The notes below the pieces were generated by a model. The model saw only the letters and a list, made by a program, of their open reading frames with translations. It was not told the origin of the DNA and did not search any database. Position numbers and translations under genes: made by a program. A stretch of DNA of 64,000 bases from Candidatus Latescibacterota bacterium (GTDB lineage: Bacteria > Latescibacterota > UBA2968 > UBA8231): the NCBI GenBank assembly GCA_965223905.1, contig CBDCXV010000002.1, positions 480,001-544,000 on the forward strand, in the 5' to 3' direction. Each line of letters starts with the position of its first letter. Position 1 is the stretch's first letter. Positions 6,493 to 47,943 of this stretch are shown piece after piece.

Positions 6493-6640
6493 ACCAGACC
6501 CGGAACCCGTCTAATGGATTTACCTTCTTTCTTGGATTGCCTTTTCTGTTTTGTCAAACCGCCGTTGCGGGTATGGTTGCCTCAAATTGGGCAAGAAATT
6601 GATCTACTTCACTGTCGGTAAATCCTTCTTTGTAGACTAC

Positions 6641-7900
6641 CTGGACTTTTGCAAACTCCGCTTTTTTGCACAAGTTTTAGGTGTGCGACGATTCTCTCCT
6701 GCGTCCACCCTACTGTTATGGCCTGTTCGACCGCCCAGGTGATGGTTTTACTGAGCGTTTCTCGCGACACGGCTCGACAGGCTTCGCCAATGGTCGTCAG
6801 CACGGTATGAGCCCAGTCACGCGCACGGCCCTGCCGCCTCCGTGCCCTGAGCAGACTGTGCGTCAGCATCACGAGGTACCTATGCCGGGTCTGGCCCTCG
6901 CCGCTGCGTAACTGACCGTCTCCCATGCCCAGATGGTGCTTGCCGTCCCGATGAAAAGTCTCGGTGCCCGTCCAGCGTTTGCGATAGACGTTCAGAATAC
7001 GACTGATCTCCCAGTGCACGCGATTGGTCAGTAGAAACTTGACCGCTTCCCTGCCGTTCTTGCGATCCCACAGGATCACCAAGCGAACCCGGTGCTTGAG
7101 CTTGGGCAGACGCAGGGTTTTGGTGAAATACCGGTGAAATACCATTGTTTGCGCTTGCCGATGCTGACCTGTTTGCGATCCTCGGGTGGGATCTTCGCAG
7201 CCACTTCCGTGGCCTTCATCAGGCCGCCCTTGAACTCGACCTTGCGGTTGCTCTTCAGGGCCCCTACGTAGCCGCGCTCATGACTATGGATGTGATCGAG
7301 ACACTCGACACTGCTGAAGTAGCAGTCGAAGGCGAAATCGCCCGGGATCTGTCGGTACACGACCCCGTCCACCAGCTCTTTGAACAGCTCGGTATGGCTC
7401 TTGAAGGAGGTGTCCGTCTCCCCTTCCTGGCGCTTGCGAAAGCGACGGAATTCCAACGGATAGTATTTCCCCGAGGTGCACACGTAGTGGGCGATGACGT
7501 AGTCGTGGGCAATCCTATAGCGCTGGTCGGAGTGATCCCAAAACCAACCCACGTCCTCGATCTTGTCTCCGCTGTGGCCGACCAAGGTGTTGTCGATGGC
7601 GATCACCCCGCGCCCCGAATAGCGCGTCGAGGGGCGCTCCTGCAACCATTCCAGGCGGTGTTCGTTGAGCCAATTCCCGTCCCATCGCACCTGCGTAATC
7701 CAGCGGTTCAGGCAGGACTGGTCGGTGGTCTCGACGAACTCGGCGTTGATCGCCGATACATGTTTGCGTTCGGCCACCATCAACCCGGTCAGATACTGGG
7801 CAAAGTGACGGCGCTTCGGGGCGTTGGCGAAGATGCCGCCGAACTCTGCCACCGCTTCTTCAACCACCGTGGGAAAATCAACAATACCTGGCATGAACAA
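6641..7900 (-). pseudogene. IS701-family DDE transposase, frameshifted
   Basis: 'HFAQYLTGL', 'IAIDNT', 'FAFDCYF', 'YRKRWT.TETFHRDGK..LG'; 11-bp tandem duplication GGTGAAATACC at 7122-7143 shifts the frame. Confidence 0.85.
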
Positions 7901-8034
7901 CCTCTCTCATGGCCAGGGGAAACGAAGGCGGGGGATGCCTTCGTCCTACCAAAAATACCAAGTTCCATCGAATTCGCGCTACCCTCTATCCTTGACCGAT
8001 TATCCCAGGAATTCTGCCTTTTGCAAAAGTCCAG
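6641..8034 (-). mobile_element. IS701-family insertion sequence with 15-bp TIRs and a 6-bp target duplication
   Basis: CTGGACTTTTGCAAA (6641-6655) and TTTGCAAAAGTCCAG (8020-8034); GACTAC at 6635-6640 and 8035-8040. Confidence 0.9.
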
Positions 8035-9171
8035 GACTACCACGTGTTCACGCACCATATTTGGCATTTGGGAAATTAGAGCCGTCACATCCGTTTCGTC
8101 TTTTCTCTGGTCTATGACGAATACATGCGTTCCTTCTCGGAAATTATCTGTTAGAACTGTGTTGATTTGTGGGTCTCTAAACGAGAACCCGACGAAAATA
8201 ATAGCATGGGCTTGACGGGCAACTCCTCCAAGGTGGCCATAAAATGTATCAAAAGGGGACTCCAGTAGTTGATCCTTAAACCCTGGATATAAAATGACAT
8301 TATTTGTGGAATCAAAAGGTTGGTTCTGGATGTTTGAAAACTCTATTCTCCCATTGTAGTGTTTCCAGTCTATCGAGCCGTGTAATTTGGTTAGAAGTCC
8401 TGACTTTCCCGATGGATTGTCTTTAGTCCAGTGATCTTCGTTCAAGGTGAAAGCGATCCCTTGCTGGTTCCTCCCATATTCTATGTCAAGATCATTTACA
8501 TTGATAGTTCTTTCCAAAATGGTATCGTAATTTGTAGTGAAAATCTCTACCCTCCGGTTGGCAATGAGACCTTGAATAAACCGGCTCCAACGGTTGTCTT
8601 TATAAAAGGATTCGTCCTCCCTGGCGCCATAAACTTTATGAATTTCTTCATAAATAGAGTTTTTAATTTTGATCAATCCGGGAATAAAAGATGATATTTC
8701 ATTGATGACAATGGTATAATCAACCCGTGATTTGCTTAACATACTATGTATTCTATTACCGGCCATCATCCACCCCAAGGGTCTCCCATCATTTTTCATC
8801 ATTGATGCCTCTTCCAGATAATCATCAATTGCCCACAGCATATGTTCTATATCTATTTTCGGTCCTATGGTGTGGGTTAAGAATCCATGTATTTGATCGT
8901 ACCACATAGATCCAGTAACACTCTTTGGTAGACGGCTAAAAAAGCCGTCTGTGGTAGGGAACTTTCTCTTGTCTATGGCAGCCGATCCGCCCGCACCGAC
9001 GAATAACAAGATCATGATGTTCTTTCTTTCTGAGTTTGTATTTCAGCAACTGATTGACTCCACCCGAAAGCTATTCACCTTTCAGGCATTTTTGGATACT
9101 CCAGGGAGGATTCGTCCTTAATTCAGAATAGGCTGTTTTGCATTCTCTGAGACAGCATCCCTATATCCCAA

Positions 9172-9244: not shown

Positions 9245-9652
9245 CTAAGTAGCCGAATAAATACCGGTTTGACAAGCTAACCTCAATAATTCTCTTATAA
9301 CGTCCTCGTCATCATTGTCATATCCAGCTATTTCAGAATGTGACTTATCGTTGCACGCAGGGAAGCGGTTAACCTCAAGACAGCAATTATTTTTATTTTC
9401 CACTGCACGAACATCTCCAGCATTCAATTTGGCGAGCTTGGATTTAGGGCTGATCTTGTTAAACTTGGATCGAAGTTTCTCCCTAACTCCTTTGAGTGCG
9501 ATCTTTGAAGAAGAACTAAAATATTCAAGCCAATTAACTGATAGATTTTCCCCCGGACGCAATATAAAGGCATCACTTGTCGGCAGACCGTCTTCTCCAA
9601 TAGTAGCTGCTCTACACCATCGGGTAATGTGGTTACCATCGGGTATTACCAT
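9245..9652 (-). CDS. Small ADP-ribosyltransferase/RES-fold-like protein (cassette A gene 3)
   Basis: Pattern 'ITRW ... AF ... LSVNW ... SHSEI.G'; ATGGTAA 7-nt overlap with the upstream gene; the fold call is inference. Confidence 0.55.
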   Translation of the reverse strand: MVIPDGNHITRWCRAATIGEDGLPTSDAFILRPGENLSVNWLEYFSSSSKIALKGVREKLRSKFNKISPKSKLAKLNAGDVRAVENKNNCCLEVNRFPACNDKSHSEIAGYDNDDEDVIRELLRLACQTGIYSAT

Positions 9653-10344
9653 ACCTCTTCTGTCTCCGGAGGTATGCTGGTATACCCTCGCAAAAAATCT
9701 TGAAAGGCAATTTCCTGTTGTTCCAAGGGGATCAATCCGCCAGGATCTTCACCTGAAAAGGGAGTAGGGATATCCTGTTTTGACATCATAATTTGTTGAT
9801 TCCCTTGAAAAGGGTTTACGGTTTTGATAAACCCCATTCGGCGCAGTATCGGACTCACACTCTCGGCTATATCCTCAGATAGTAAAACTAAATCGTTGGC
9901 ATGCCATTCCTTGGTAGAAGATTGCCCGGAAACTTTAACCTGTTTCAGGGAGAGGAATCTCAAAATTAAAATATCGAACCTGGTAGTTTTCCATTGAGCA
10001 GAAAGAATCCCATTGGCAGCAGTAATATCCTGATAGAGGATTTCTGGATTTTGTTTGAAAAACATCCTAAGTGATTCCTCGGATTCTTTGTCTATAGGGA
10101 GTTCTTCTTCCGGATACTCCGCCACGACCTTTTTCAAATATCTTAACCTATTTTCAACGGCAGTCATGTAATCACCAAATGGCGTAAGTCCTCCAATTTG
10201 AACCCGAATCGAGTCATCATGACAGGTTGCTGAAAGCGACTCAGTCAACTTTTCAAGAATGCCATACTCTCTTGGGGCTTTGGCAATATCGGTCTCGACA
10301 GTCCAGCGCCCTCCCCGGATGAATTTACCCTTAGGACTTTTCAA
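9646..10344 (-). CDS. Hypothetical antitoxin-like protein (cassette A gene 2)
   Basis: Intact 232-aa ORF starting 1 nt after the upstream stop; core 'RLRYL..P..ES...FF...DI...NGILSAQW...LILRF'. Confidence 0.55.
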   Translation of the reverse strand: MKSPKGKFIRGGRWTVETDIAKAPREYGILEKLTESLSATCHDDSIRVQIGGLTPFGDYMTAVENRLRYLKKVVAEYPEEELPIDKESEESLRMFFKQNPEILYQDITAANGILSAQWKTTRFDILILRFLSLKQVKVSGQSSTKEWHANDLVLLSEDIAESVSPILRRMGFIKTVNPFQGNQQIMMSKQDIPTPFSGEDPGGLIPLEQQEIAFQDFLRGYTSIPPETEEVW

Positions 10345-10345
10345 A

Positions 10346-11053
10346 TTAAAAATCTCCTATTATTTCTTTCAGTGAATTCAATACGAACCTCTGGCGTTCC
10401 GGCCATCTACTAATTGCCTCTCGCTGGGCTTCGGCATCAAGTGGACCTTGATGATGAATGTTAATATCGGCGCCTAATACAACAAGTTTGTTTTCTATAA
10501 CCTCACTTACTTTATTTTCCCCAACGTCTCTTCTCCGGGTTACATATACAGCTGGTTCTAATGTCATATTGCATACTACAGCCTCGCCTGCACTTAAAAT
10601 GAATTTTGGGACCACAGAAATCAAGGGGAGGTCTGAAAGATGGGGAGCAAACTGAGAAATAATCCATTGATTAGAGTCTTTCCCCTGGAAATCGAAGTAT
10701 ATTATACAATTTAGTCCGAGCTCCTTATAAGGGGCATGGGGAAATCTTGCAAGGTATGCATCGGCAAGGTCATGGACAAGATAACTGTCCATGACTTCCT
10801 CAGGTTTGTCAACAAACTCCTGTATAATATTGAGCCTGTTCTTATTCATCCTCCATCGAGTTCCATTATCGTAAATATAACCAGCCGCCTCTAATCCAGA
10901 TTCTCCACCAGCTACTTTCCAGTCTTCAGGGACTATCCCATTTTCTGCCAATAAATTTGGCGTAAAGGTTGCCGGACTGAAGCTTTCAGAAACAATGACA
11001 ACACTTGTCGAAATAAGGCTGTATCGAGGGTGTTTTTGTGCAGCATCCTTCAT
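10346..11053 (-). CDS. Hypothetical protein, remote TIGR04255-like (cassette A gene 1)
   Basis: Intact 235 aa with AGGA RBS; 'SVVIV', 'PHAPYKELGLN', 'MTLEP', 'INIHH'. Confidence 0.55.
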   Translation of the reverse strand: MKDAAQKHPRYSLISTSVVIVSESFSPATFTPNLLAENGIVPEDWKVAGGESGLEAAGYIYDNGTRWRMNKNRLNIIQEFVDKPEEVMDSYLVHDLADAYLARFPHAPYKELGLNCIIYFDFQGKDSNQWIISQFAPHLSDLPLISVVPKFILSAGEAVVCNMTLEPAVYVTRRRDVGENKVSEVIENKLVVLGADINIHHQGPLDAEAQREAISRWPERQRFVLNSLKEIIGDF

Positions 11054-11107
11054 ATCATCGTCCTATTTCAATGAGGTTCTTCATCCGATGGGTACGGGCT
11101 GACGAGG

Positions 11108-11514
11108 ATTAGCTCCGGGATGTCACCACGACCTCGTAAGCGCTCTGAATCTCCTGAAACTTTTCCTCCGCCAGCTTGATGATTCCAGGGGGAATCTCCT
11201 CGCCAGTCAGCCTGCGGGTGATATTCCTGACATAGTTCCCGGTATTTCCGTTTCAGTTCCTCGTCCTCCGGCGAGCATCCCAGCGTCTCGTAGGACCCCG
11301 CCAGCACCTGTTCCTCGAACTCCCTCCCAAGCTCCTCGTCCGTTACCGCTTCGCCCTCGGAGCTGACTAACAGGTGTCTGTTGACCAGCCTGGTCAACTC
11401 CAACAGGGTCACCTGATCCTGGCCGCTGAAGATCCTCCTCAGATTTTCGTCCGCTTTTGATCCTTCCCGGGTTTCTCGCGTCCTGTAAATCGTTATCCCC
11501 GATGTATTCTCCAC
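11108..11514 (-). pseudogene. DjlA-like J-domain co-chaperone remnant
   Basis: 'SYETLGC...LKRKYREL.QEYHP', then a frameshift into 'RLTGEEIPPGIIKLAEEKFQEIQSAYE'; the HPD motif is broken. Confidence 0.6.
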
Positions 11515-20066: not shown

Positions 20067-20576
20067 TCAGGCTGGGTCTCCTGAGAGCCGACCTTCGTCG
20101 TCGATATGGACGACTCGGTCAGGACGGTTGGGGCTCCACTTCCACATCACGAGGTTGAGATCATTGGCGCCAGACCCGGCGGCGAAACTCCGGACCCGCA
20201 TGCCGGCATAACCTGCGGCGATCAGGCGGTCGGCCAGCGCCTGCGAGGCAGGGACCGACCCGGCCAGCATCTGCGCTTCCCAAGTGGGGCATGCGAGATC
20301 GGAATCGTCAACGCCCAAGGACCGGCACTGCTCTTCGTCCAGCGCATCGAAGACGGGCTCCGCATCGACCTCATAGGCGCAAAGGGTGATCGGCTGCAAT
20401 GTCCGGCCCAGCGGCTGCGCTTCGCGTACGGCAGTCAACAGCGCCAGCGAGGTATAGAGCGCGGGAATTCCACGCCGATTGAAGCGGCCGCCGTACCGGC
20501 GCGCGCCCTCGCCCGACAACGGCGTCCAGGACCACTGGGGATTGTGCGCCCGGTAAACCATCCCCCGGAATCGCAT
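20067..20576 (-). CDS. RES-domain toxin
   Basis: 'VYRAH', 'GGRFN', 'ALYTS....A.RE', 'SQALA', 'VRSFA', 'NLV.W'. Confidence 0.9.
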   Translation of the reverse strand: MRFRGMVYRAHNPQWSWTPLSGEGARRYGGRFNRRGIPALYTSLALLTAVREAQPLGRTLQPITLCAYEVDAEPVFDALDEEQCRSLGVDDSDLACPTWEAQMLAGSVPASQALADRLIAAGYAGMRVRSFAAGSGANDLNLVMWKWSPNRPDRVVHIDDEGRLSGDPA

Positions 20577-23009: not shown

Positions 23010-24908
<1,899 letters not shown>

Positions 24909-25673: not shown

Positions 25674-26502
<829 letters not shown>

Positions 26503-26513
<11 letters not shown>

Positions 26514-27789
26514 AGGCTCAACAGGAACTTCGGAAATGCCGCCCGGATGGCGGATCAGCCCTGTAGGGGAGGTCGTTGGGGTTCATAAGGAACAGGTTAC
26601 GCCTGAATTCCATCCAACCAGGCAATTCCATCACTTCTCGATTCCTGCCTACGACGAAAACAATGGACCTGTGATGGAGTCAGGTCGAGATATCGGCAGC
26701 AATAAGACCACGGTCCCACCCAATTCAGTACTCGTCTCAAAACTCAACCCACGAATACCAAGGGTGTGGATGCCGGAAATTGAAGAACGGCACCATGCCA
26801 TTGCCTCAACGGAATTCCTGGTCCTTCGACCAACGCATATTGATCGTGGCTTCTTGAAGCACCTGTTCCTCTCTCCACTCATGTCCTCGGAACTAGTGGC
26901 GCGAGCAACCGGGACAACTCGTAGCCATCAGAGGGTTCGTGCTCCTGATGTCCTTGCCATCCCAGTAGGTCTTCCTCCCCTTCCCGAGCAGCGAAAAATT
27001 GCCGCAATCCTCTCCTCAGTGGACGACGCCATCGAGAAGACCCAGGCGGTCATCGACCAGGTGCAGGTCGCCAAGCGCGGCCTGATGCAGGAGCTGCTCA
27101 CGCGGGGCCTGCCGGGCGGGCACACGCGGTTCAAGCAAACGGAGATCGGTGCAATACCCGTATGCTGGCAACTTGCATTGCTTGCCGAAGTGCTTGACGG
27201 AATAGATGCAGGATGGAGCCCTAAGTGTGAAGGGCGACCAGCAGCACTTAGCGAGTGGGGGGTGCTAAAGGTTAGCAGTATTTCGAGTGGACACTTCAAG
27301 CCTCACGAGAACAAGGTTCTCGCTGAGGGGTTGGAAACACGTGTTCAGCTTGAAGTAATGGAGGGCGATGTCTTGGTTGCTCGCGCCAGTGGTGTGCTGG
27401 GCCTTGTTGGACGTTCTGCGTTTGTGCACGGAACCAGACCGAGACTAATGCTGTCCGATAAGACACTGCGCCTGAAAGCCAAGGAATCTGTATTGCGGCC
27501 AATGTTTCTCAGTCTTCTCTTGGAAGATCCGCGAGTTCGGCGACAAATCCTTATGCGGACGACCGGCAGTCACATGAGAAATATTTCGCAACAGGCGCTC
27601 CGACGAGTGCTGGTTCCGGTTCCGTCATTAGATGAGCAAGAACGCATTGAAGTACTGGAAGTTTACGCCGGGACCCGATTGGAAGAGGAGAGGAAATCCC
27701 AAGATCAGTTGGAAGCAGTCAAAAGGACACTCATGTCCGTCCTCCTCACCGGCGAGCTCCGGCTCACCCCTGACACCGAAGTCGCATGA
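26503..27789 (+). CDS. hsdS: Type I restriction-modification specificity subunit S
   Basis: Two AT-richer TRDs and conserved 'LPPLPEQRKIAAILSSVD..I', 'PSLDEQ', 'LM..LLTG'. Confidence 0.93.
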
Positions 27790-27829
27790 CCCCCAAGGCA
27801 ACCGGCTGGGCCGAGCTGCACCTCGCGGG
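27786..27829 (+). repeat. Stub of the hsdR 5' end (copy 1)
   Basis: ATGACCCCCAAGGCAACCGGCTGGGCCGAGCTGCACCTCGCGG, matching the hsdR start at 31759. Confidence 0.85.
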
Positions 27830-30149: not shown

Positions 30150-30232
30150 GCTGAAAGCCGTCTCAGTTACTCCTGAACTCGAACCCCCATGACCTGCAAG
30201 ACCACCGGCTGGGACGAGCTGCACCTCGCGGA
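30150..30232 (+). repeat. Stub of the hsdS 3'/hsdR 5' junction (copy 2)
   Basis: '..VTPELEPP*' overlapping ATGACCTGCAAGACCACCGGCTGGGACGAGCTGCACCTCGCGG at 30189. Confidence 0.8.
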
Positions 30233-31736: not shown

Positions 31737-31758
31737 GTACACCTAGACTGCCACCCCC

Positions 31759-34769
<3,011 letters not shown>

Positions 34770-34773
<4 letters not shown>

Positions 34774-35498
34774 CCGGAAGCCTGGAAACTTCGGAGATCG
34801 CCTGGGGGGATTCGCGGCTGACCTATGCCATCCGGCGTAGCGCCCGGCGGAAGAAGACCGTGGCAGTGACGGTGGATCCGGCCGGCGGGGTGTTGCTGGT
34901 GGCCCCGGAGCAGATCAGCACCAGCCGACTGGATGCGATGGTCCGGCGGAAGGCACCGTGGATCGTGAAGCGGCTCCGGGGGGTGGAGTCGGGGGATCCT
35001 CCTCCGCCGCGGGAGTTCGTCAGCGGGGAGAGCGTGATGTACCTGGGACGGCACTACCGGCTGAAGGTTGATTCCGGGGGGCCGGGGGAGGCGAAGCTGC
35101 GCGGCGGCTGGCTGCACGTTCCCGCGCCAGCGGGGGAGGGGCAGCGGGATCAGGTGCGAGCGGCGTTGGTCTCGTGGCTGCGGGGGCACGCCGAGGTGCG
35201 GTTGCCGGAACGGGTGGAGATGTGGCGGCCGAAGGTGGGCGTGGAGATGCCCCAGGTGGTGATCTCAGACCAGCAGAAGAGGTGGGGTAGCTGCGACCGC
35301 AGCGGGACCATTCGGCTGAACTGGCGCATCATCCAGGCCCCGATGCGGTTGGTTGACTACGTTGTGGTTCACGAGTTGGTGCATCTGCGGCACCGGGGGC
35401 ACGGCCGGGACTACTGGCAGGCCCTTGGGCGGATTATGCCGGATTATGAGCGCCGGCGGGAGGATCTGCGGCACCGGGGGCTAGGATTCGCGTGGTAG
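34770..35498 (+). CDS. M48/YgjP (DUF45) zinc metallopeptidase-like protein
   Basis: 'RWGSC', 'LNW', 'DYVVVHELVHL..H'; ATGA overlap with hsdR. Confidence 0.9.
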
Positions 35499-35579
35499 CT
35501 ACCGTGTAAGTCCTCCCAGATTTCCTTGGCAAACCCCACTTGCGCACCTCTCTCCCACCCTCCCTTGCGGATGAGGCCT

Positions 35580-36880
35580 CTAACCCATCAGTTCCTCCAT
35601 CATGCGGAATTCTTCCGCAAAACTCCCGCTTTCATCCGCATCGGCCTGCTCCCGAGCCAATTCCATGGCCCTTTCACGATCAACGGACTTCGGAATCAGC
35701 GCCAGAGCATACTTCCGAATATCCACCTCCTCCCGCTCCAGCAGCCGACGAAGGTCGATATAATCCAGCATTACTCCACAGTCCACGAGCCTTTCGATCG
35801 CGTCGCAGGTCTCCCCGACTCCACTATCCCCCTCAACTGCCTCAACAATCGCAGGGAGTACGGATTCCGTTCCCACGGTTCTCACCTTGCCATTCGCACA
35901 GTCGTCCAGATAACCTATTTCGCACTCAACTAGGAATCTGGGGAAGGTAGAGGTCAAGAACCCACTAGCCGTCCCAATAATCGTCTTTAGGCTAGCAACC
36001 GGCTCAATTGAGGCATCGTTCATCGTGACAAGATATGTTGGAATTCGCAACGCACACTGCCGACAGATATCTAGCAGATCCGGATCTCGGAGGGAGGTTC
36101 CGACAAAGATCGCCACATCCACATCCTTGGCAACATTTCGCAATTCTGTAGTCAAGTCAGGATACGGCGGCAAGGTAGTACGCTTTTCTCGCGTTGGAAG
36201 AATCATGGCGCTTCTCATTTTGGGGCCAACATACGATAGGTTATCAACAACCGAAAGGGCAAGATTCCCGTATAGAGGCATGGGGTGCCTTAGCTTGTAC
36301 ACGGCTCCATCGTCGCCCATATACCAGTCTGTTGAACCGTGCACTTTCAACAGTCTCAGCATGCCTTTCTGTGCGACATTCATTCCCCTCCACGTAGCAG
36401 TCTCCATTTCCCCAAACTCATAAAACCCGTCGTCAACCGGAGTCTCAAAACACCTACAGGCAATTTCGATGGCCCTATCGTAATTACTGGTCGCTATACA
36501 CAATTGGTGGTCCCCCATTTTCCTCACGACCACTCCCCAAAGACTTTTGGCGTGTACATCCCTAAGACGTTCACACACATGTTGGACAAACCACTCAGCC
36601 TCCCACCGCATCATCCGACTTGAGTTGAGGAGGTCTTCATCGACGGGGAAACCAAGTTTGCGATGGATGTCTTGCCCTTTCTCCAAACCTTCGACGGTCT
36701 CAATCAGCTCTTCCATGTCGTACTCCGATTGAGACAGCATTTGCTCCAACTTCTCAAGAACTCTTCCGGTCCATTCGAGGTTTGCCAAATGAGCATGGAA
36801 TTCCTCCACCATTCGACGCATTGCGGGAATACCTAGTTCTACCGAAGCACCCGCGCACCGGCAAAAAGCAGTATTTTCAA
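35580..36880 (-). pseudogene. SIR2-family protein with a helical C-terminus; +2 frameshift in the GAGAS motif
   Basis: TTG at 36880 'MKILLFAGA[cg]GASVELGIP'; 'ATSNYD', 'LKVHGS.DW', 'FVGTSLRD'. Confidence 0.85.
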
Positions 36881-38580
36881 CTTATTGTCTCCATCAAATA
36901 CTGCCGCCTAATGGGTCCCAGTTTCCCGGTCTTCTTCGGTGACTTTGACAGTATATTTGCGATCTGTTGGGCATGTTCCTTACCATACTCTTTACAGCCA
37001 ATCCACAGTCCAATGTGGCCTTCGTTTCTACGGCAAATGGTCCGTACGATCTCCTTCCCTCCTTCATGGTCAATGTTAATCCAGATCTCGTCGCCAACCG
37101 GGAGGAGTGCTGCCGCACCCTGTCCTAGCCGGACAAGCTGCACGTTCGGCTTGTGGTCAAATACGGTTGCAACAGCTTCGCGCCCAACGACATCATTGGC
37201 GACGGCTTCAACCTGAACTAGTCTTGGAAGGAGCCCCTGGAAGTGATTCACGAGCAAGTCCCCCGTAGACGCACCTACGAAACTGGTTTCCCGGAGGAAT
37301 TGCGGCTCTCGATCAACACCTTGGACTACAAGGTGACCGCTATTCCTAAGCACCCGGACGGCTTGTTGCGTTACTTGGTTCGCTCTTGCTAGATTTAGGG
37401 GCGCAATATAGAGCTCATCCTTTTCGAGCGCCTCTATATCCCGAATAGATACTTCACTGCTTTGTTGACCTGGCTCCAGGAGACGAAATGCTTTTCTGTG
37501 GCGAAACTCCTCATCCCATAGTCTTGCTACCTTTTCGTATGGGCCAGTGCGGGGGACCGCAAGCCATATGGTTACCCAACGGCGGAGAGACCAACTTCGT
37601 GTTGTCTCATCGCTTAGCACTTAGCGTACGCATTCAATCGCACGCTCAAGTACAGCAGGGTGATAAGATCTCAACACAGGTTCGAGTTCAGCCTGTAAGC
37701 TGTCGCCTACGAATCCCTCTCGATTGAGTTTGGGCCGAAAGTGCTTGGGATCAACATGAATTGCACCTTCTATCGCCCAGAGTTGCTTTATGGCAACGGA
37801 GGCAACGAATACACCGCGATAGAGGATGTCGACATGAGCAGAGCCGTCGAAACTGTCCCAAGAATTGAATAATACGGGTGGACCAACATGAGCAGTTTGT
37901 ATCCAATCTGGCGTCAACACTGAAATAGGCCTTATTTCTCTGCTGATTCCGCCTTGGTCGATTTGTTTTCCTCCAGGGTCCTCCGTTGCCGTTAGTCCCT
38001 CCACGTCGCGAATCCAATGTGGGAATTTTTCCACTATCTGTTCAAAGGCCGACTCTTTGTCCACGAACAATATCAGATCCGTTCCTTGTTCTTTCCTACG
38101 AGGCTCAAGGGAAATCGCTTTGGTCGTTGCGTCCAACATGCCCCGGTTGAACTCCAAGCCCAAGGACTCGTTACCCGGCTTCAGAGTAAAGAGCTGGAAT
38201 TGTTCGCAAACTAGGAAGTAACTCAGGACCCCGATCCCAAACTCACCCACGGCGTTGTATTCGCCCTCCGCGGCTTTCGCTGCGACCCTAGACGCAGAGG
38301 CCCCAATTCGAGAGAAGAGTTCCACCATCTGATCTCTCCCCATGCCATCGCCATTGTCCGAGATAGTTACAGTGCGTGATTGGCGATCAAAGACTACTGA
38401 AATCTGGGGATTGACCGATGGATCTGTGGCTTGCCTACGACCCACCGCGTCAATGGAGTTCAGAATCGCCTCCCGTATTGATGCGTCCACGCTCGAATAG
38501 AAGGTTTCTCCAGTAAAGAGCTCCAGGATCGACTCCTGGTCGATAGTAAACCTTGGCGGCCAATCCGTGGTAGCATTCAT
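36877..38580 (-). pseudogene. Hsp90-like GHKL ATPase protein split by one in-frame TAA (37621-37623)
   Basis: 'IREAILNSIDA', 'DNGDGM', 'GEFGIG', 'GT'; ORFs 37621-38580 and 36877-37620 abut in the same frame. Confidence 0.85.
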
Positions 38581-38719
38581 GTAATGACTCCTGAGGGCAT
38601 TGGCCCCTCTATCGAGTTCGTTAGGCGAAATGTCCGGTAGGCCGTTTTTTCCAGCCGTATGACGCTTGGGGCTTCAGACCGGCTCAGGACCATTCTCCCC
38701 CCTACCTCCACCTGCCAAC

Positions 38720-39330
38720 CCTCACCCATACACCACCTCCACCAACGCCCGCATATACCCGATCGCATACGCCTTCCCATGCAACGCCCCATATACCGGC
38801 CCAAAGGACGGGGTGTGGACTATAAGGTACGGTCCGTTGAATCCGTTGTCCCCGGTAGACCTCCATTTCCGGCCGCAAGTCCACCTCGCCCTCGGCGATG
38901 AAGACCTCGGGGAACCGCCGCAACTGGCCCCCGACGTTGCGGAAGTGTACCCAGGCTATCTGTCTTTGAGGCCATCTTTGCGATGGCGTCGTAGACCTTC
39001 TCCGGTCCCAGCAGCTCGGTCATGCAGCCCTGGCAAAAGAGCATTCAGCTGGTGTCGATCGGGGTGACTTGAAGAAGATTCGGCGGAACTGCACCAGGGA
39101 GGAACAGATCTGCGCCACGCCGGGAAGGGGGCTGGGGCATCGGCGGGTCGTCCGGGTGCAGGGCAATTCGCACGCCCGCTTTCTCGGGCGCGGGGACCGC
39201 AGCTGCCAGGAAGCGCTCCATGCGCTTCCACATCCGGGCCTCGTCCACGGGGGAATCGTGGGGCTCGGGCCGGTTCCAAGGGGCGGTTTTGAAGGTGGCT
39301 GATCCCCTTGGTACATTCCGCGTGAATCCC
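38720..39330 (-). pseudogene. uxuA: Mannonate dehydratase remnant (copy 1)
   Basis: 'AGVRIALHPDDPP', 'FCQG', 'VHFRNV', 'F..EGEVD', 'AYAIGYM' across frameshifts. Confidence 0.75.
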
Positions 39331-39457
39331 CGACTCCAAAGGGACACCTTTCTTACGGGACTGCTCACCTTCGACAGAATGCGTATCTGAGCAGCGGGGC
39401 AGAGGATCCTTCCCTTTGCCCTCCCCACTCTCGTCGTCTTAGGCCAAGCGCGCGCCC

Positions 39458-39992
39458 ATGGACTTCTATGAGGCCGCCGCAGACCTCTACGACCACACCT
39501 TCGGACGGGCCGAGTTGGAGGGCGAGCGCGGTGACGTGGCTTTCTATGTACAGGAGGCTCGGCAGGCCAGGTTTTCGCCGGTCCTGGAGCTGGCCTGCGG
39601 CACCGGGCGGGTCCTGATCCCGATCGCCCATGCCGGGGTGCCGGTGGTGGGCTTGGACAGCTCGCCGGTGATGCTCTCGGCGGCCCGGAAGAAGGTCGCC
39701 CGGCTCCGGGAAGCGACGCGACAGCGCATCGAGCTGGTCGCCCTCGTCATCATTCCCTTCCGCTCTTTCCTGCACCTGATGACCCCGGCCGACCAGCGCC
39801 GGGCCCTGGGCCGGATCCGCGACCACCTGACCGAAGACGGCCGCCTCGTGTTCAACATCTTCGACCCGCGGCTGGACATGATCGCCTCCCATCTCGGGAC
39901 ACCGCGGGCTCGCCGTGGAGGCGCTCTACGGCGGCTTTGACCGCGGGCCCTTCCGCCACGGCGGCGAGCAGGTCTGGGTAGCGCGGAGGGGG
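39458..39992 (+). pseudogene. Internally deleted copy of the SAM methyltransferase at 40943
   Basis: Near-identical start and end, with two internal deletions. Confidence 0.88.
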
Positions 39993-40744: not shown

Positions 40745-40942
40745 TTGGTGCTCTCCCTTGGTGCGGGGTCTATGGTTTCTGGTTTTCTTCTATTCCAAAC
40801 GAGCGCCGGCCCGAATGTACGGGTCATGGATGACCGGTCAATTCAGCGCCGGATCACAGCGCAACTCGTCGCTGTCATTGTCGTCCTTTTTGCACTCCCC
40901 ACTCTCGTCGCCTTAGGCCAAGCGGGCTCAGCAGCACCGCCC

Positions 40943-41752
40943 ATGGACTTCTACGAGGCCGCCGCGAACCTCTACGACCACACCCTCGGGCGGGCCGAGC
41001 TGGAGGGCGAGCGCGGCGACGTGGCCTTCTATGTACAGGAGGCCCGGCAGGCCGGGTCGCCGGTCCTGGAGCTGGCCTGCGGCACCGGGCGCGTCCTGAT
41101 CCCGATCGCCCATGCCGGGGTGCCGGTGGTGGGCTTGGACAGCTCGCCGGCGATGCTCGCCACGGCCCGGAAGAAGGTCGCCCGGCTCCGCGAAGCGACG
41201 CGGCAGTGCATCGAGCTGGTCGAGGGGGACATGCGCTCCTTCTCCCTCGACCGGCGCTTCGACCTCGTCATCATCCCCTTCCGGTCGTTCCTGCACCTGA
41301 TGACCCCGGCCGACCAGCGCCGGGCCCTGGGCCGCATCCGCGAGCACCTGACCGACGACGGCCGCCTGGTGTTCAACATCTTCGACCCTCGGCTGGACAT
41401 GATCGCTTCCCATCTCGGACACCGCGGCCACCCCCTGGAGAAAGAGAGCGAGTTCACCCATCCGGAAACGGGGCGGCAGGTGGTCGAATGGGTGAGGCGC
41501 CGCTACGACGCGGCGAACCAGACGATCGACGAGGAGCGGATCCTCGAGGAGCTGGACGGCGGACAGGTCGTTTCCAGGACCCCTGCGACGCTCGCCCTGC
41601 GCTGGGTCTACCGCTACGAGATGGAGCACCTCCTGGAGCTTAGCGGCTTCGCCGTGGAGGCGCTCTACGGCGGCTTCGACCGCGGACCCTTCCACCACGG
41701 CGGCGAGCAGGTCTGGGTAGCGCGGAGGGCGTCAAGCCCACCCTGCCGGTGA
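40943..41752 (+). CDS. Class I SAM-dependent methyltransferase
   Basis: 'VLELACGTGR', 'GLDSS..ML', 'GDMR.F.L..RFDLV'. Confidence 0.9.
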   Translation: MDFYEAAANLYDHTLGRAELEGERGDVAFYVQEARQAGSPVLELACGTGRVLIPIAHAGVPVVGLDSSPAMLATARKKVARLREATRQCIELVEGDMRSFSLDRRFDLVIIPFRSFLHLMTPADQRRALGRIREHLTDDGRLVFNIFDPRLDMIASHLGHRGHPLEKESEFTHPETGRQVVEWVRRRYDAANQTIDEERILEELDGGQVVSRTPATLALRWVYRYEMEHLLELSGFAVEALYGGFDRGPFHHGGEQVWVARRASSPPCR

Positions 41753-42225: not shown

Positions 42226-42437
42226 GGGACAGTGATCATTTCTCGGATGGCGTCAGCCGGCACACCGCGCAACCCCTCCTCCCGACGGTCCTCAAGGATG
42301 AGCGCTACGGCCTCAGCCAGATTCTCGCGTGCTTCCTCCTTGGTTTTGCCCTGACCGTTTGCCCCGGGGATCTCGGGGCAATAGGCGATATGCCATTCCC
42401 CATCCTGCTCGATAATCGCCGTAAACTCGTTTTTCAT
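42222..42437 (-). CDS. hicB: HicB antitoxin
   Basis: 'FTAIIEQDG.W.IAYCPEIPGANGQGKT.EEA..NL.EA'. Confidence 0.9.
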   Translation of the reverse strand: MKNEFTAIIEQDGEWHIAYCPEIPGANGQGKTKEEARENLAEAVALILEDRREEGLRGVPADAIREMITVP

Positions 42438-42503
42438 TGTGTGTTTCCACCCTCTTTGTCTTGCGTATTGCCTTCGGATGACAGTAGGCTCACCCGCTAA
42501 ATC

Positions 42504-43131: not shown

Positions 43132-43772
43132 TCAGGTTTCTGGGGAATTTGGGCAGGAGAGTCCGCAATGTGACCCGAGAATCGAACTGACGACATTGTG
43201 CAGATCTTGAAAGTGGGTGAAATACTCAAAGGTGGCGTTTTGAAGGACGTGGTTGGCGAAATCAGCCTTCCGGTTTTTTGGGAACTCACGTCCCAGCAAC
43301 CTGCCGTCGTTGTCCACCTTGCTGATCGAGATTGGCTCCAAGATCCTCTCGTCATAGGTATTCTCGATGCCGTTGCGGGCGATCACGTTGTCTTGTCGCC
43401 TCCTGAACGCGAACGGTGTGACCTTGGCAGCACCGGGCAGTTCCTTGCGCAAGTTATCCGCCTGGTCCGCGGCGTCACCATCCCACACGATTACAAAGTG
43501 CGTGTTCGTGTTCATCCTTCCGAGCAGCCGGCCGTATGCGAGTAACTGGCTGGCGCTGCTGTGTTGAGAAAGATCTTCGAAAACATGGACATTCTGTGGA
43601 AAACTCAACTGCACCCATTTCTTGAGGTGCCGGGCGTTATGTCCCTCAGTCAGTATAGTCACCTTCGCTTCGTCGTACGCTGCGATCCTTAGTCCCAGGT
43701 CCACCGTTGCGAGGCCTTCTGAAAGTTCGTTGATGGCTTCCGACTTGGTGGTGCGAGCGACGTTGAGGCGGG
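43132..43772 (-). pseudogene. TOPRIM domain (OLD-like) 3' fragment
   Basis: 'ILTEG', 'VWDGD', 'GIEN', 'K..FA'; the 5' part is replaced by the M48 duplicate. Confidence 0.6.
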
Positions 43773-44313
43773 GTGGATCGTGAAGCGGCTCCGGGGGGTG
43801 GAGTCGGGGGATCCTCCTCCGCCGCGGGAGTTTGTCAGCGGCGAGAGCGTGATGTACCTGGGGCGTCACTACCGACTGAAGGTTGATTCCAGCGGGACTG
43901 GGGAGGCGAAGCTGCGCGGCGGCTGGCTGGACGTGCCGGCGCCGGCGGGGGAGGGGCAGCGGGATCATGTGCGAGCGGCTCTAGTGGGGTGGCTGCGGCG
44001 GCACGCCGCGGAGCGGCTGCCGGAACGGGTGGAGGCGTGGCGGTCTAAGGCCGGGGTGGCGATGCCTCGGGTGGTTATCGCGGACCAGCAGAAGCGGTGG
44101 GGGAGCTGCGACCGCAGCGGGACCATTCGGCTGAACTGGCGGATCATCCAGGCCCCGATGCGTCTGGTGGACTACGTGGTCGTCCACGAGCTGGTACACC
44201 TGCGCCATCGGGGCCACGACCGCGACTACTGGCAGGCGCTCGGGCGGATCATGCCGGACTATGAGCGCCGCCGCGAGGATCTGCGGCAACGGGGGGTGGG
44301 GTTGGCGTGGTAG
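43773..44313 (+). pseudogene. Duplicated 3' three-quarters of the M48/YgjP gene (copy of 34958-35498)
   Basis: Colinear high identity with many substitutions; no N-terminus. Confidence 0.92.
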
Positions 44314-44578
44314 CGTCGTCGAGGGTGAGGGCCCGGTAGTTGGCGGCTAGGTCTGAGCCGCCATAACCATGCGAGGTAAGGTACGAGCTCAAGCCTCGCG
44401 GAAGCCCGAGGGTGCGGTCCGTGCCTCCCCTCTCTCTGTAGCAGGTGGGGGCGGTCGATCTGCGGCAGAGAGTCACAGTGGGTATCCTAGGCTCCGGTGA
44501 AGCCGGGGCGCCCGGTGGTCCTTGCTGGTTAGGGCTGGATGTCGGGAGCTACAGTACGGGGCTATTGGCCTTAGAGGA

Positions 44579-44977
44579 TTACGGCCGTGGCATCCATGAT
44601 GCCGCATTAGCAAGCGCCTGCAAATGCTCATTCACTTTATCGGGATCATTCATATCCGCGCAGGGCAACCGAACATCAGCATGGTAGGGATTGCAGCATG
44701 TGGGGGATGCAACTACGCATCGCCCGTCTTGAGATGCGATTTCCGCTTTCACCACAGCCCATCCCCGGAAGTTCCTGCCTCGCATCCTGTCCCTCTTGTC
44801 AGCGATTGAGGCAACCTCGTCAATCCACGAGTCGCACAAGCGGTCGAACGATACGCCGCCTTCGTCTAACCTAAAATCCCTATGGCGAAAAATCCCCCTC
44901 CTTGCCTTTCTCGCGCTCGAGTCGGAAGCGATACTCCGGCCCAATTTGCAATCCCCGCTGATGTCCTTTGTCACCAT
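44579..44977 (-). CDS. Small ADP-ribosyltransferase/RES-fold-like protein (cassette B gene 3)
   Basis: 'LGRS ... DF ... VSFDR ... NPYHADV'; ATGGTGA 7-nt overlap with the upstream gene; the fold call is inference. Confidence 0.55.
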   Translation of the reverse strand: MVTKDISGDCKLGRSIASDSSARKARRGIFRHRDFRLDEGGVSFDRLCDSWIDEVASIADKRDRMRGRNFRGWAVVKAEIASQDGRCVVASPTCCNPYHADVRLPCADMNDPDKVNEHLQALANAASWMPRP

Positions 44978-45804
44978 GTCCATCCATCGGTCATTTCATC
45001 CAGTCTCAACAAAGCCATGCGAAGAAAACCATCGGGCAGTTGGCCCGACTCCTCCGGCGTATAGGATCTGCTACGTTCGGGAATCCCTGGGACATCAACA
45101 AGGCAAAGTGCCCCTCCGTTTGACCTGCATAACAGAATCACTGAACTGCCTCTTCTGTTCGGAAGGCTAATGGCAATCTCTCGATCATGAGTAGTGTATA
45201 TGTCATATTGCCTGGGGAGGATGTCGAACATCTCTCTGAGCAGGCGATCGGCGTTTGTCTTTGCCAAGTCCGAAGGAAGCTCGAAACCTTCTTCTAATGC
45301 GTCCTTGTCGACTTCGTTCAATTCATCCAAGAGTTCCTGGAATCGGCTATCTGTCTCGGAGGGCCTGGAAGACTCCACAAAAGCCCAAATAGGGACAAGC
45401 GGCTTGTTCAAATCGCCATAGACTGTATGTCTGCCTCTACGAGAATTGCAACCTGCGAATGTGCTGTAAGCAGCGCGCCCTACTTCGGGCGTAGAGGAAA
45501 CGTCAAGATAGCCAGAGGAATCTTTCCAAAAAGCAAGCGAGAACTGCTCTCTGCCCTGATCCCAGGCGCTGGTGTGGGGATTATTTCTGAAAAACTGCTC
45601 TTGCCCCTGTCTCCATTTCTCCAATATGGAAAGGTTCTCCAGGAGGACAGCATCGGTCGTTCCAGTTTCCTGATTCTCGTCCCCCTGTTCCCAAGTCGTC
45701 CAGCCAGCAGTGTCAGGATCAGCCATAGGGTTCCGTGGTGCACGGAACAATGCTCGATCCCGTGTTGGTGTCCGGGGCTTAGAAGCGGCTTGAGTCATTT
45801 CCAT
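44971..45804 (-). CDS. Hypothetical antitoxin-like protein (cassette B gene 2)
   Basis: Polar N-terminus and core 'LDEL...A.EEG...PS..A..NA..LL.....DIY...D.EIAI'. Confidence 0.55.
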   Translation of the reverse strand: MEMTQAASKPRTPTRDRALFRAPRNPMADPDTAGWTTWEQGDENQETGTTDAVLLENLSILEKWRQGQEQFFRNNPHTSAWDQGREQFSLAFWKDSSGYLDVSSTPEVGRAAYSTFAGCNSRRGRHTVYGDLNKPLVPIWAFVESSRPSETDSRFQELLDELNEVDKDALEEGFELPSDLAKTNADRLLREMFDILPRQYDIYTTHDREIAISLPNRRGSSVILLCRSNGGALCLVDVPGIPERSRSYTPEESGQLPDGFLRMALLRLDEMTDGWTW

Positions 45805-46451
45805 TGGTCAAAACAATCGATGAAGTCAAAAGTATTCTTCCACACTTCAGCAAATCGACTATTCAAATCCAAGTGGTCGCGGATCTCTTCTGTGTCGAGA
45901 TGGACATTCGTGCTAATGAAGATTTTTGGAGTTTCAAGGTCTTGGAGGCGAGGCTCGATGGTAACGATGAACTTTCTATTTCTATCGTCCCCTGTATAGT
46001 ACATCTTGCATCCACCACCAGAAAGCTCCCAGTCCTTGAAAGACTCTCTCTTAGGAAAGATCCGCGAGGCGATATAGAGGCCGGCCGGCGAGCGTACCTC
46101 ATTAACTTGGGCAGGGGTATACACAACCTCCATGTTGAATCCAATCGCCGTAAGTGGCTGACTTTCGAGGTCGTCGGTATAGGACATTGCCTTTGTGGCG
46201 ACATCTACTAATTGGGCAAGGTCTTCGTCCGAAGATAGATAGTCTCTTTGAACAATCGACCGCTCGCTGGATAAATCCAGCGAGATCCTATGCTTGTTGA
46301 TGATATGATTTCTTGAGCCGCCGGTCACAATGGTGGTCAATTCATCATCAATGGAAAACTGAAACTGCCTTTGTTGCTCCGGTGTATTGAGTAGGTCTAT
46401 CCCCAAAAGCACCATGTTTACCCTTATCACTTCAAATGGAGAACTGTCCAT
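45795..46451 (-). CDS. Hypothetical protein, remote TIGR04255-like (cassette B gene 1)
   Basis: GAAGGA RBS before ATG 46451; 'NMVLL', 'AIGFN', 'VTIEP', 'TNVH'. Confidence 0.55.
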   Translation of the reverse strand: MDSSPFEVIRVNMVLLGIDLLNTPEQQRQFQFSIDDELTTIVTGGSRNHIINKHRISLDLSSERSIVQRDYLSSDEDLAQLVDVATKAMSYTDDLESQPLTAIGFNMEVVYTPAQVNEVRSPAGLYIASRIFPKRESFKDWELSGGGCKMYYTGDDRNRKFIVTIEPRLQDLETPKIFISTNVHLDTEEIRDHLDLNSRFAEVWKNTFDFIDCFDQWK

Positions 46452-46874
46452 GATTCCTTCTCCCCTCAATGCTCTGCGTGCGTGGTGGGCCCCTGGCTTG
46501 GGCTCCTCATGGCAGAATCCGGCGCCGGCCCCACTTGCACCAGTGTTCATCCGTAGCCCTGCTATGCCCGCGTGGAACCTATGAGTGCCGATGACGGCCT
46601 GTCAACTCTCAGCCTTGCTCGTTTCGTGCAAGGCTAGTCCTCTCGGGCTCCGTCCTCCCCTCGCCAGGGCCCGCGCTGCGGCCATGCCACAAAGACTTCC
46701 AGAGGTATTTGCCTAAGCAACTCTGATACACATGGGACCACCATGCAAGACTTGGGACATGCCCTTCGCCCAACGAATCCTGGTCCCGCACTCCCCGAAC
46801 CGTCACCGCTGATGAGCTGTACCCCTTCCTCGCCAGTCCTTTGCGTCCCTCTCACCCTCACCCGAAAACCACCA

Positions 46875-47150
46875 CCACCACCAGCTCCCGGATATATCCG
46901 ATCGCAAAAGCCTTCCAGGCAGGGGGTCGAACCCCGCCCAAAGGAAGGTGTTTGGTCCATTATGTACGGCCCGTTGAACCCGTTGGCCCGGAGACCTCAA
47001 TCGCCCACTGCATGTCCACCTCGCCCTCGTCGAAGAAGATTTGGGGGAACTGCTCCAGGGTGGAGCAGATCTGGGCAACTCCGGCCAGGGGCTCGGGGAA
47101 TCGGCGTGTCGTCGGGGTGCAGAGCTATCCGCACTCCCGCTTTCTGGCCG
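46875..47150 (-). pseudogene. uxuA: Mannonate dehydratase remnant (copy 2)
   Basis: 'KAGVRIALHPDD', 'FFDEGEVD', 'NGFNGPY', 'AFAIGYI'. Confidence 0.7.
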
Positions 47151-47196
47151 CGACGGGTGGTGATGAGGTCCGACGACGGTCTATGGTAGAACAATC

Positions 47197-47391
47197 TCAA
47201 ATGGCATCTGCCGGCACACCGCGCAACCCGTCCTCCCGGCGGTCCTCAAGGATGAGCGCTACGGCCTCAGCCAGATTCTCGCGTGCTTCCTCCTTGGTTT
47301 TGCCCTGACCGTTTGCCCCGGGGATCTCGGGGCAGTAGGCGATATGCCATTCCCCGTCCTGCTCGATAATCGCCGTAAACTCGTTTTTCAT
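47197..47391 (-). CDS. hicB: HicB antitoxin, second copy, 3'-truncated and without hicA
   Basis: Nearly identical to 42222-42437, including the upstream RBS. Confidence 0.85.
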   Translation of the reverse strand: MKNEFTAIIEQDGEWHIAYCPEIPGANGQGKTKEEARENLAEAVALILEDRREDGLRGVPADAI

Positions 47392-47409
47392 TGTGTGTTT
47401 CCACCCTCT

Positions 47410-47943
47410 TTAGTTTTGCCTATTGCCCTCGGACGGGGTAGGGGTTGGGCTGTTCTGGCGCAATGCGACTTTCACAGCCCCCCAACTGCGTGCCTGCACT
47501 CCCGTCGATATCCCTTCCACCTGTACATGGAAGTACGCCGGCTCGGATTCCACCGGCCCGTCATCGGTATTCTGCACCGTCGTGACCGCCCACAGAGTGT
47601 GCGTGTCGCTGTCCAGGGTAGCGACCACGACCCTGACGACAGGCTCCATAGGGCCGATGATGCCCCACGACACGAGGGCAGTCTTGGGAGAATCCAGCTC
47701 TACCAGGTTGCCCTGTTCATCGAGGCCCACAGTGACCGCTATCTCCCGGTAAATCCGGTATCCGTCCGCTCCCTCCACCGCATTCCAGGTCACGAGGATG
47801 AAGCCGCCCTGGTCGCCCTGGTTCTCCGGCGGGTTGTATGGCACTGCCACCACCGAGTCGGGCGGCGCAGGCAGGGCCAGACCCGCGTTCACGGACAGCA
47901 GCAGGGCAAGTATCGCCAGCGTCACTTTCTTCGCATGTCTCAT
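47410..47943 (-). CDS. Secreted Fn3-like protein with a C-terminal 'SWG.VK' tail
   Basis: Signal peptide 'MRHAKKVTLAILALLL..AGLA'; 'VTWNAV.GADGYRIYR'; 'TGVQARSWGAVK'. Confidence 0.7.
   Translation of the reverse strand: MRHAKKVTLAILALLLSVNAGLALPAPPDSVVAVPYNPPENQGDQGGFILVTWNAVEGADGYRIYREIAVTVGLDEQGNLVELDSPKTALVSWGIIGPMEPVVRVVVATLDSDTHTLWAVTTVQNTDDGPVESEPAYFHVQVEGISTGVQARSWGAVKVALRQNSPTPTPSEGNRQN

Follow-up and report, generated by a model that had tools for sequence, protein, structure and literature searches.

A three-gene cassette led by a predicted TBP-fold protein, in a variable slot beside type I restriction genes of a Candidatus Latescibacterota bacterium

We analyzed a 64,000-nucleotide (nt) stretch of DNA from a Candidatus Latescibacterota bacterium (contig CBDCXV010000002.1, positions 480,001 to 544,000; this whole stretch is called the window, and coordinates refer to it), concentrating on a three-gene cassette at 44579-46451 that we call cassette B. 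The cassette consists of three consecutive, co-directional and overlapping open reading frames (ORFs) on the minus strand. An earlier reading of this DNA, made from the letters and a list of ORFs (the sequence-only reading), had described it as a highly diverged second copy of another cassette in the window, cassette A (9245..11053, minus strand; 235, 232 and 135 amino acids (aa); gene 1 family A1), with the same gene order and similar protein sizes, and both the order and the sizes were confirmed by the ORF list and its translations. Read from their first start codons, the three ORFs span 45795..46550 (251 aa), 44971..45804 (277 aa) and 44579..44983 (134 aa), while the starts chosen in the sequence-only reading give proteins of 218, 277 and 132 aa. 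For gene 1, the 218-aa start (45795..46451) is preferred and the 251-aa reading is unlikely, because the purine-rich, Shine-Dalgarno-like stretch GAGGGGAGAAGGA (46455..46467, minus strand; read from the sequence) lies just 5' of its ATG, and because all 100 aligned relatives of the protein start at the same column. A scan for promoters and terminators around cassette B returned nothing beyond shuffled expectation.

Both junctions within the cassette are overlaps. Gene 2 (44971..45804, minus strand) begins within the sequence ATGGAAATGA (45795..45804, minus strand), in which the gene 1 stop codon TGA lies inside the gene 2 start region. The overlap is 10 nt for the 277-aa protein, or 4 nt (ATGA) if translation begins at the second ATG (45798), yielding 275 aa; the latter, a classic ATGA overlap, is the more likely start, and an ATGA overlap between genes 1 and 2 also occurs in four of the nine relative loci described below (L001, L003, L005 and L009). 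Gene 3 (44579..44977, minus strand; 132 aa) encodes a small orphan protein in the position of a putative effector. The 3' end of gene 2 reads ...GGA TGG ACA TGG TGA, and gene 3 starts at the ATG of ATGGTGA (44977-44971), giving a 7-nt overlap of a Trp-stop with a Met-Val start. Alternative gene 3 starts are possible, either an ATG 6 nt upstream or a GTG with a 4-nt overlap; the N terminus of the database protein P0207, a variant of gene 3 discussed later, is MVTKD. The counterpart junction in cassette A is ...GTA TGG TAA, with ATGGTAA at 9646-9652, so the resemblance between the two junctions pointed out in the sequence-only reading can be read directly from the DNA. That A and B have this junction in common may nevertheless be coincidence, because it is present in none of the nine fetched relatives and ATGGTRA occurs 12 times in the window (both strands counted).

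The family to which gene 1 belongs is large and has no name. An exhaustive search of 1.84 billion representatives recovered 221 representative clusters at E <= 1e-3, 131 of them at <= 1e-10, with a best non-self match of 1.6e-31; these relatives are 210-230 aa long and match gene 1 over its full length (residues ~7-216). A word-indexed protein search with the same query found only gene 1 itself. We aligned gene 1 with 100 of the 149 listed relatives, having excluded two-stretch matches, partial-query matches and fragments, and found that it keeps 24 of the 29 positions conserved in at least 80% of the 100 aligned relatives. Pfam searches of these 101 gene 1 family members, and of 61 gene 3 family members, revealed nothing consistent; the commonest match, VMAP-M20, was to four of the 61 gene 3 members with a best E of 0.018 and was taken as noise. 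The identity TIGR04255 was suggested for gene 1 by the name of an Atlas cluster only (score 0.93) and was rejected, the model itself matching none of the six window proteins, none of the nine A-type proteins and none of the 101 B-type proteins; a literature search for the term TIGR04255 returned no paper. The gene 1 family is undescribed in the sources searched, and it has no family model.

The AlphaFold2 (AF2) model of gene 1 is well defined (predicted local distance difference test score (pLDDT) 93.3, predicted template-modeling score (pTM) 0.89) and contains two successive beta-alpha-beta4-alpha units. When it was compared with the PDB using Foldseek, the best matches were TBP chains, both eukaryotic and archaeal (probability 1.00, E from 1.4e-5, template-modeling score (TM) 0.3-0.44), followed by AdoMetDC, RepDE and the arginine kinase McsB. 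Gene 1 is predicted with high confidence to comprise two tandem TBP-like domains: the model displays the two beta-alpha-beta4-alpha repeats and the pseudo-symmetric sheet that mark the fold of the TBP-domain superfamily, although its TM to the TBPs is only 0.3-0.44 and the Pfam TBP model matches neither gene 1 nor any other of the 101 family members. Searches of PDB sequences with profiles of gene 1, of the C-terminal part of gene 2 and of gene 3 gave no match below E=0.25. According to the accessible part of a 2013 survey of the superfamily, the characterized domains outside TBP itself are single-copy and reside in multidomain proteins (PMC3597702); judged by that part of the survey, a free-standing bacterial protein with two TBP domains, such as the model of gene 1 predicts, would be unusual (PMC3597702). 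Among viral models, an unnamed 202-aa protein (BFVD A0A515MGR4) has the whole gene 1 fold (TM 0.63/0.67, E=1.9e-9, 15% identity), and giant-virus TBPs are likewise among the matches. As the match to A0A515MGR4 is far better than any in the PDB, the models suggest that a phage or virus may carry a homolog or mimic of gene 1.

We compared cassettes A and B gene by gene. As stated in the sequence-only reading, they have no DNA-level similarity (best blastn E = 0.12, best tblastx E = 1.9). At the protein level, BLASTP between A and B gave E = 0.003 for gene 1, 0.37 for gene 2 and 0.31 for gene 3, and the observed scores were reached by 2, 98 and 85 of 300 shuffles, respectively. Although the two gene 1 proteins are only 11% identical in the alignment, comparison of the A-type profile (a family of nine sequences) with the B-type profile by hhalign gave E = 8.5e-4 over 128 colinear columns, with the motifs G-x-N and N-x-H in register, and a hidden Markov model (HMM) of the A-type family matched B-type members down to 9.7e-8 per comparison, or ~1.5e-5 after correcting for the 150 tested; the reverse comparison, with the nine A-type members, was weak (best 0.0025). 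A bridge between the cassettes is provided by relative locus L008, in which a B-type gene 1 precedes a gene 2 and a gene 3 that are homologs of their cassette A counterparts (BLASTP 3e-6 and 5e-14). On this sequence evidence, the gene 1 proteins of A and B are distant homologs, and the cassettes are probably two versions of one modular system, connected by gene 1, by synteny and by the bridging locus.

The view of cassette B as a diverged copy of A therefore holds for gene 1 and is reinforced by L008, but it does not extend to genes 2 and 3, whose direct similarity is not significant; the profile-profile comparison that the sequence-only reading had called for supports the gene 1 link. The cassettes also have in common their gene order, sizes, strand logic, 7-nt Trp-stop/Met-Val junction and setting, each being an insert of low guanine-plus-cytosine (GC) content beside SIR2 or restriction-modification (RM) genes. 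They differ in that the gene 3 protein of A sits in a firm subfamily (E = 2.9e-27 against its 15 sequences), whereas that of B falls in no gene 3 subfamily.

Nine loci carrying B-type gene 1 relatives were retrieved and examined. These form a biased sample, because the seven query sequences from which they were found share one conserved stretch, one variant of the motif, and because all nine loci come from Chloroflexota metagenome-assembled genomes. In every one of them, the two genes downstream of gene 1 lie on its strand and encode proteins of 229-362 aa and 125-165 aa, in that order, with overlaps or gaps of no more than ~12 nt, and no conserved fourth gene was found. Cassette B has this same architecture, its downstream proteins being 277 and 132 aa and its overlaps 4-10 nt and 7 nt.

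The downstream pairs are of several kinds. In four loci (L002, L004, L005 and L009), gene 2 matches the last ~120 residues of the 376-aa PADLOC model PDC-M32A (E to 7e-34), and gene 3 matches PDC-M32B over its full length (E to 1.8e-49). L001, L003 and L007 carry a pair of a second kind, and L008 one of a third, the kind whose homologs are the cassette A genes 2 and 3. The PDC models matched neither the pairs of these other five loci nor any of the nine gene 1 proteins. The pair of L006 (5633-7183, plus strand) is possibly a fourth kind, with a 346-aa gene 2 protein that has a weak HEAT-repeat match and a 165-aa protein unlike the other kinds of gene 3. In a gene 1 tree of only 11 rows, in which the branches of A and B are long, L004 clusters with L006 (support 92/98) apart from the other loci with PDC-M32-like pairs; because L004 joins L006 rather than those loci, the tree suggests that downstream pairs have been exchanged behind a constant gene 1.

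Neighbors were recorded within 5 kb of each relative. L002 has HsdM on one side and an HsdS-domain gene on the other, and L004 lies directly before an HSDR_N/N6_Mtase gene and an HsdS-domain gene. L003 is flanked by a SNF2 helicase on one side and by a nucleotidyltransferase-HEPN gene and Cas3 on the other. L001 has two PIN genes, Fic and an MmeI target-recognition domain in its vicinity. Restriction or Cas neighbors are thus clear in four of nine relatives (L001-L004). For L005, only a PIN gene was noted, and L006, L007, L008 and L009 stand among metabolic, transport or transposase genes.

Cassette B itself occupies a slot whose cargo differs between two units of the window. On its left lies a convergent, N-terminally truncated gene for a YgjP-like metallopeptidase (43780..44313, plus strand; Pfam PF01863, E=6e-49), and the stretch 43773-44314 is 88% identical to 34958-35499, the complete YgjP-like gene after hsdR in a sister unit of the same window. 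On its right lies a non-coding or decayed stretch (46854..47050) that is also present in the sister unit, with 76.6% identity over 201 nt to 38718-38915, where the sister copy adjoins a UxuA fragment (PF03786, E=3.9e-9). Between these matching flanks, the sister unit holds an operon encoding a SIR2_2 protein, a 247-aa protein and a HATPase_c_3 protein (35580..38580, minus strand; assigned by Pfam, by PADLOC SIR2 models with E to 3.2e-12, and by the flanks), where the unit at 44 kb holds cassette B instead. The sequence-only reading had placed cassette B in the slot of an "Hsp90+SIR2" operon, and the two pairs of flanks, 88% and 77% identical, bear this out, with HATPase as our description of the first component. 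Cassette B has a GC content of 50.6% and cassette A one of 42.4%, whereas the flanking genes reach 67-71%, and because of this difference both cassettes look imported.

From these observations we tentatively favor the explanation that cassette B is an operon acquired by horizontal transfer and still intact, with its three genes coupled in translation, and that it represents an undescribed modular system that would act as a toxin-antitoxin-like or abortive-infection module. Gene 1 (~220 aa, with its two predicted TBP-like domains) would be the constant part of the system and would be followed by exchangeable, co-varying gene 2/3 pairs, of which PDC-M32 would be one kind, the pair of cassette A another, and that of cassette B a kind of its own. 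In such a module, the product of gene 3 would be a small toxin serving as the effector, its invariant Ser and His being candidate active-site residues; gene 2, made just before gene 3 from an overlapping frame, could provide the cognate neutralizer or adaptor; and the beta-sheet face of gene 1 may bind nucleic acid or some other infection-related ligand and so release or regulate the pair. The whole would be lodged in a variable slot beside type I restriction genes.

Several results weigh against this explanation, and most concern genes 2 and 3. No Pfam, PADLOC or NCBIfam model matches any protein of cassette B, nor indeed any of the six proteins of A and B together, and no recognized toxin or nuclease fold was found. 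BLASTP of B gene 2 against 10 sequences and of B gene 3 against 61 yielded nothing at E < 0.5 (best 2.7 and 0.56), and hhalign gave E=0.34 for gene 2 against the C-terminal module of its relatives and marginal values of 0.22, 0.063 and 0.022-0.13 for gene 3 against its relatives. A first reading of 62 gene 3 matches as a single superfamily had to be dropped, the subfamilies being only weakly tied to one another by hhalign (0.18, 0.039 and 0.0079). The AF2 model of B gene 3, built from 61 sequences, reached a pLDDT of 51.9, too poor for a fold search. P0207 is identical to B gene 3 up to residue 85, after which it diverges, and it stops at 88 aa; this reflects either a frameshift in the copy of a related assembly or a mistake in assembly, and could mean decay in a sister genome. 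Neither B gene 1 nor A gene 3 had a tblastn match in the plasmid and phage collections. In addition, PDC-M32 is a candidate system only, and five of the nine relatives have no RM or Cas neighbor within 5 kb and stand among metabolic or transport genes.

The lack of significant homologs of genes 2 and 3 in all searches, together with the poor model of gene 3 and the shortened P0207, would also be expected if only gene 1 of cassette B works and genes 2 and 3 are decaying remnants or chance ORFs kept open by composition, and the neighborhood does contain many decayed duplicates, among them the truncated YgjP gene, pieces of UxuA, and duplicated fragments of methyltransferase and hsdM genes. We nevertheless regard decay as quite improbable. 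Both ORFs are uninterrupted, have lengths like those in all nine relatives, and overlap their upstream neighbors as the relatives' genes do. Gene 3 has an Atlas score of 0.95 to three unnamed clusters of 133-138-aa proteins, a level reached by about 1 in 100 shuffled proteins. Against an HMM of the four PDC-M32B-like relatives, its closest subfamily, it scores 3.1 bits, which 3 of 1000 shuffles reached, and against an HMM of all 59 it scores 1.2 bits, which 35 of 1000 reached. In a joint gene 3 alignment, just two residues are invariant, Ser43 and His99, and B has both; this is weak evidence because the alignment itself included B. A HEPN-like Rx4-6H motif was also considered by eye for gene 3 and was dropped, its Arg not being conserved across the subfamilies.

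For gene 2, the C-terminal part resembles, by eye and without statistical support, the module that its relatives share. Its N-terminal region is strongly polar, as the sequence-only reading had noticed (75-85% polar or disorder-promoting residues in the first 80 aa), and varies in length and sequence among relatives; the further idea that this segment is a degron or chaperone-binding element found no support. No SecB or other chaperone domain was found in the three B proteins that would recall a toxin-antitoxin-chaperone (TAC) system, a DnaJ-like fragment being present beside cassette A but not beside B. A complex prediction for the gene 2 and gene 3 proteins (score 0.21, mark 0.32) bears neither way. 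The roles of effector and neutralizer were assigned to genes 3 and 2 of cassette B by position alone, because neither has a significant relative.

A second alternative is that the cassette serves a function outside conflict, for instance in nucleic-acid or small-molecule metabolism or in the stress response, and is a conserved operon that simply travels on mobile islands. It would fit the five loci lacking RM or Cas neighbors, the failure of defense models to match any of the nine gene 1 relatives or any B protein, and the presence of AdoMetDC and the arginine kinase McsB among the structural matches of gene 1. We consider it unlikely, since unrelated-looking pairs swapped behind a constant gene 1 are typical of conflict systems and would be odd for a metabolic pathway; moreover, four of nine relatives carry a pair of the type that was picked up as embedded in RM, BREX or DISARM loci, and both A and B lie in low-GC islands beside SIR2 and RM genes. 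The role in defense that the sequence-only reading had proposed from position is, overall, plausible: four of nine relatives lie beside RM, Cas3 or HEPN genes, the other five standing among metabolic or transport genes, and four of nine carry the candidate PDC-M32, but no PADLOC model matches a protein of B.

A third alternative is a plain addiction module composed of regulator, antitoxin and toxin, with no part in phage defense. Here gene 1 would repress the operon by binding DNA, and the other two genes would form an ordinary type II pair that stabilizes the island. Three-part regulator-antitoxin-toxin systems of this type exist, as in PaaR-PaaA-ParE. The TBP-like fold is a classical DNA-binding fold, gene 1 stands first in the operon at all nine loci, two gene 1 relatives weakly match the PADLOC HTH-WYL regulator model (E=1e-3 and 8e-3), the order of a larger and then a small overlapping gene is typical of antitoxin-toxin pairs, and VapBC-type PIN pairs occur near L001, L002 and L005. 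Yet translational coupling of gene 1 to gene 2 (ATGA in B and in four of nine relatives) would be unusual for a repressor needed in low amounts, no operator-like repeat or promoter above chance lies upstream of gene 1, and no helix-turn-helix was found. Nor was any known antitoxin or toxin domain: Pfam, NCBIfam and PADLOC revealed no type II toxin-antitoxin domain in genes 2 and 3 of B, A or the nine relatives, the PDC-M32 models excepted. We therefore think a simple addiction module unlikely.

Among known systems, the tentatively favored module comes closest to PDC-M32. The PDC systems are described, in the accessible part of the preprint, as 145 candidates whose genes are embedded in BREX, DISARM or type I RM loci (bioRxiv 10.1101/2024.01.29.577857); M32 is not named in the portion of its text that was available (bioRxiv 10.1101/2024.01.29.577857). 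A full-text literature search returned the name PDC-M32 in a single paper, which notes PADLOC matches to it in Sinorhizobium prophages (PMC12429752). The likeness consists in the downstream pairs of four of nine relatives, which match M32A and M32B and have the same order of a larger protein and then one of ~125 aa, and in the position of two of them (L002 and L004) inside or beside RM loci. There are three differences: genes 2 and 3 of cassette B match neither PADLOC model, at a threshold as loose as E<=1; the PDC-M32 models do not include gene 1 (none of nine matches); and ~250 residues at the N terminus of the 376-aa M32A model have no counterpart in the relatives' gene 2. Cassette B is best filed as a three-gene variant related to the existing candidate PDC-M32, with an undescribed lead gene of predicted TBP fold.

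Two characterized systems offer looser parallels. RnlA, the toxin of the anti-phage toxin-antitoxin system RnlAB, is described in the accessible part of its source as binding substrate RNA with two TBP-like domains (PMC8266594). By fold description, gene 1 would resemble RnlA and LsoA in having two such domains, but those of RnlA are fused to a HEPN RNase, whereas gene 1 is free-standing and no HEPN was found; an RnlA chain is absent among the PDB matches listed for gene 1. PrrC is an anticodon nuclease embedded in the type IC RM locus that guards it, according to the available part of its source (PMC12707154). The parallel is one of position, L002 lying between hsdM and hsdS and cassette B beside the remnant of an hsdR-linked YgjP gene, but cassette B has no sequence or domain similarity to PrrC (neither an ABC ATPase nor an anticodon-nuclease domain) and encodes three small proteins rather than one large one.

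The region around cassette B (20-47 kb) contains genes for a RES toxin, hsdM, hsdS, HNH, hsdR, HicB-like proteins and SIR2, along with many decayed duplicates. The RES-domain toxin gene (20067-20576, minus strand; PF08808, E=2.4e-27) lies at the edge of the restriction island. A 63-nt stretch spanning the hsdR start is present in three copies (27766-27828, 30169-30231 and 31739-31801; 73-81% identical), and part of hsdM is duplicated (24088-24387 and 25693-25992, 96%); the type I RM region has undergone repeated rearrangement. A class I methyltransferase gene is accompanied by a broken copy of itself (39415-39990 and 40889-41729, 90-95% identical), and a HicB-like antitoxin gene is present twice (42241-42457 and 47195-47411, 96%). 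The middle gene of the sister-slot operon, encoding the 247-aa protein (36877-37620, minus strand), has no Pfam or PADLOC match. Neither does a 278-aa ORF that overlaps the truncated YgjP-like gene (43132-43968, minus strand), although by eye its C-terminal half may resemble Toprim/OLD-type proteins.

Near cassette A, the ORF directly upstream (11068-11514, minus strand) has A-like low GC and contains the first part of a DnaJ (J) domain (PF00226, E=3.9e-4, below the cutoff). It looks frameshifted, because the rest of the J-domain consensus runs on in another frame. A gap of 229 nt separates cassette A from the next gene on its strand, a SIR2_2 gene (7789-9015, minus strand; ~43% GC, as in cassette A; PADLOC SIR2 to 4.5e-19), whose 3' end runs into an insertion sequence-like ORF pair (6609-7900, minus strand; DDE_5 transposase).

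A more specific form of the favored module can be imagined, in which gene 1 is a shared sensor or switch for interchangeable pairs, PDC-M32 among them, and the whole acts as a PrrC-like guard of type I RM: the saddle of the TBP-like domains would bind phage nucleic acid or an anti-restriction product and thereby unleash the Ser/His protein. Such a system would constitute a new modular family of abortive infection and would put the TBP fold to a new use in bacterial immunity. We offer this version as speculation that is rather unlikely in its particulars.

If the broader explanation of cassette B as a modular toxin-antitoxin-like or abortive-infection operon is correct, then PDC-M32, a two-gene candidate known so far only as a PADLOC model, would be part of a broader three-gene system of modular design, as one of its versions, and a single genome would carry two very different versions of it, A and B. 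Cassette B would further show that a duplicated slot beside a type I restriction system accepts different cargo. Gene 1 could be used as a search anchor with which to find further effector pairs.

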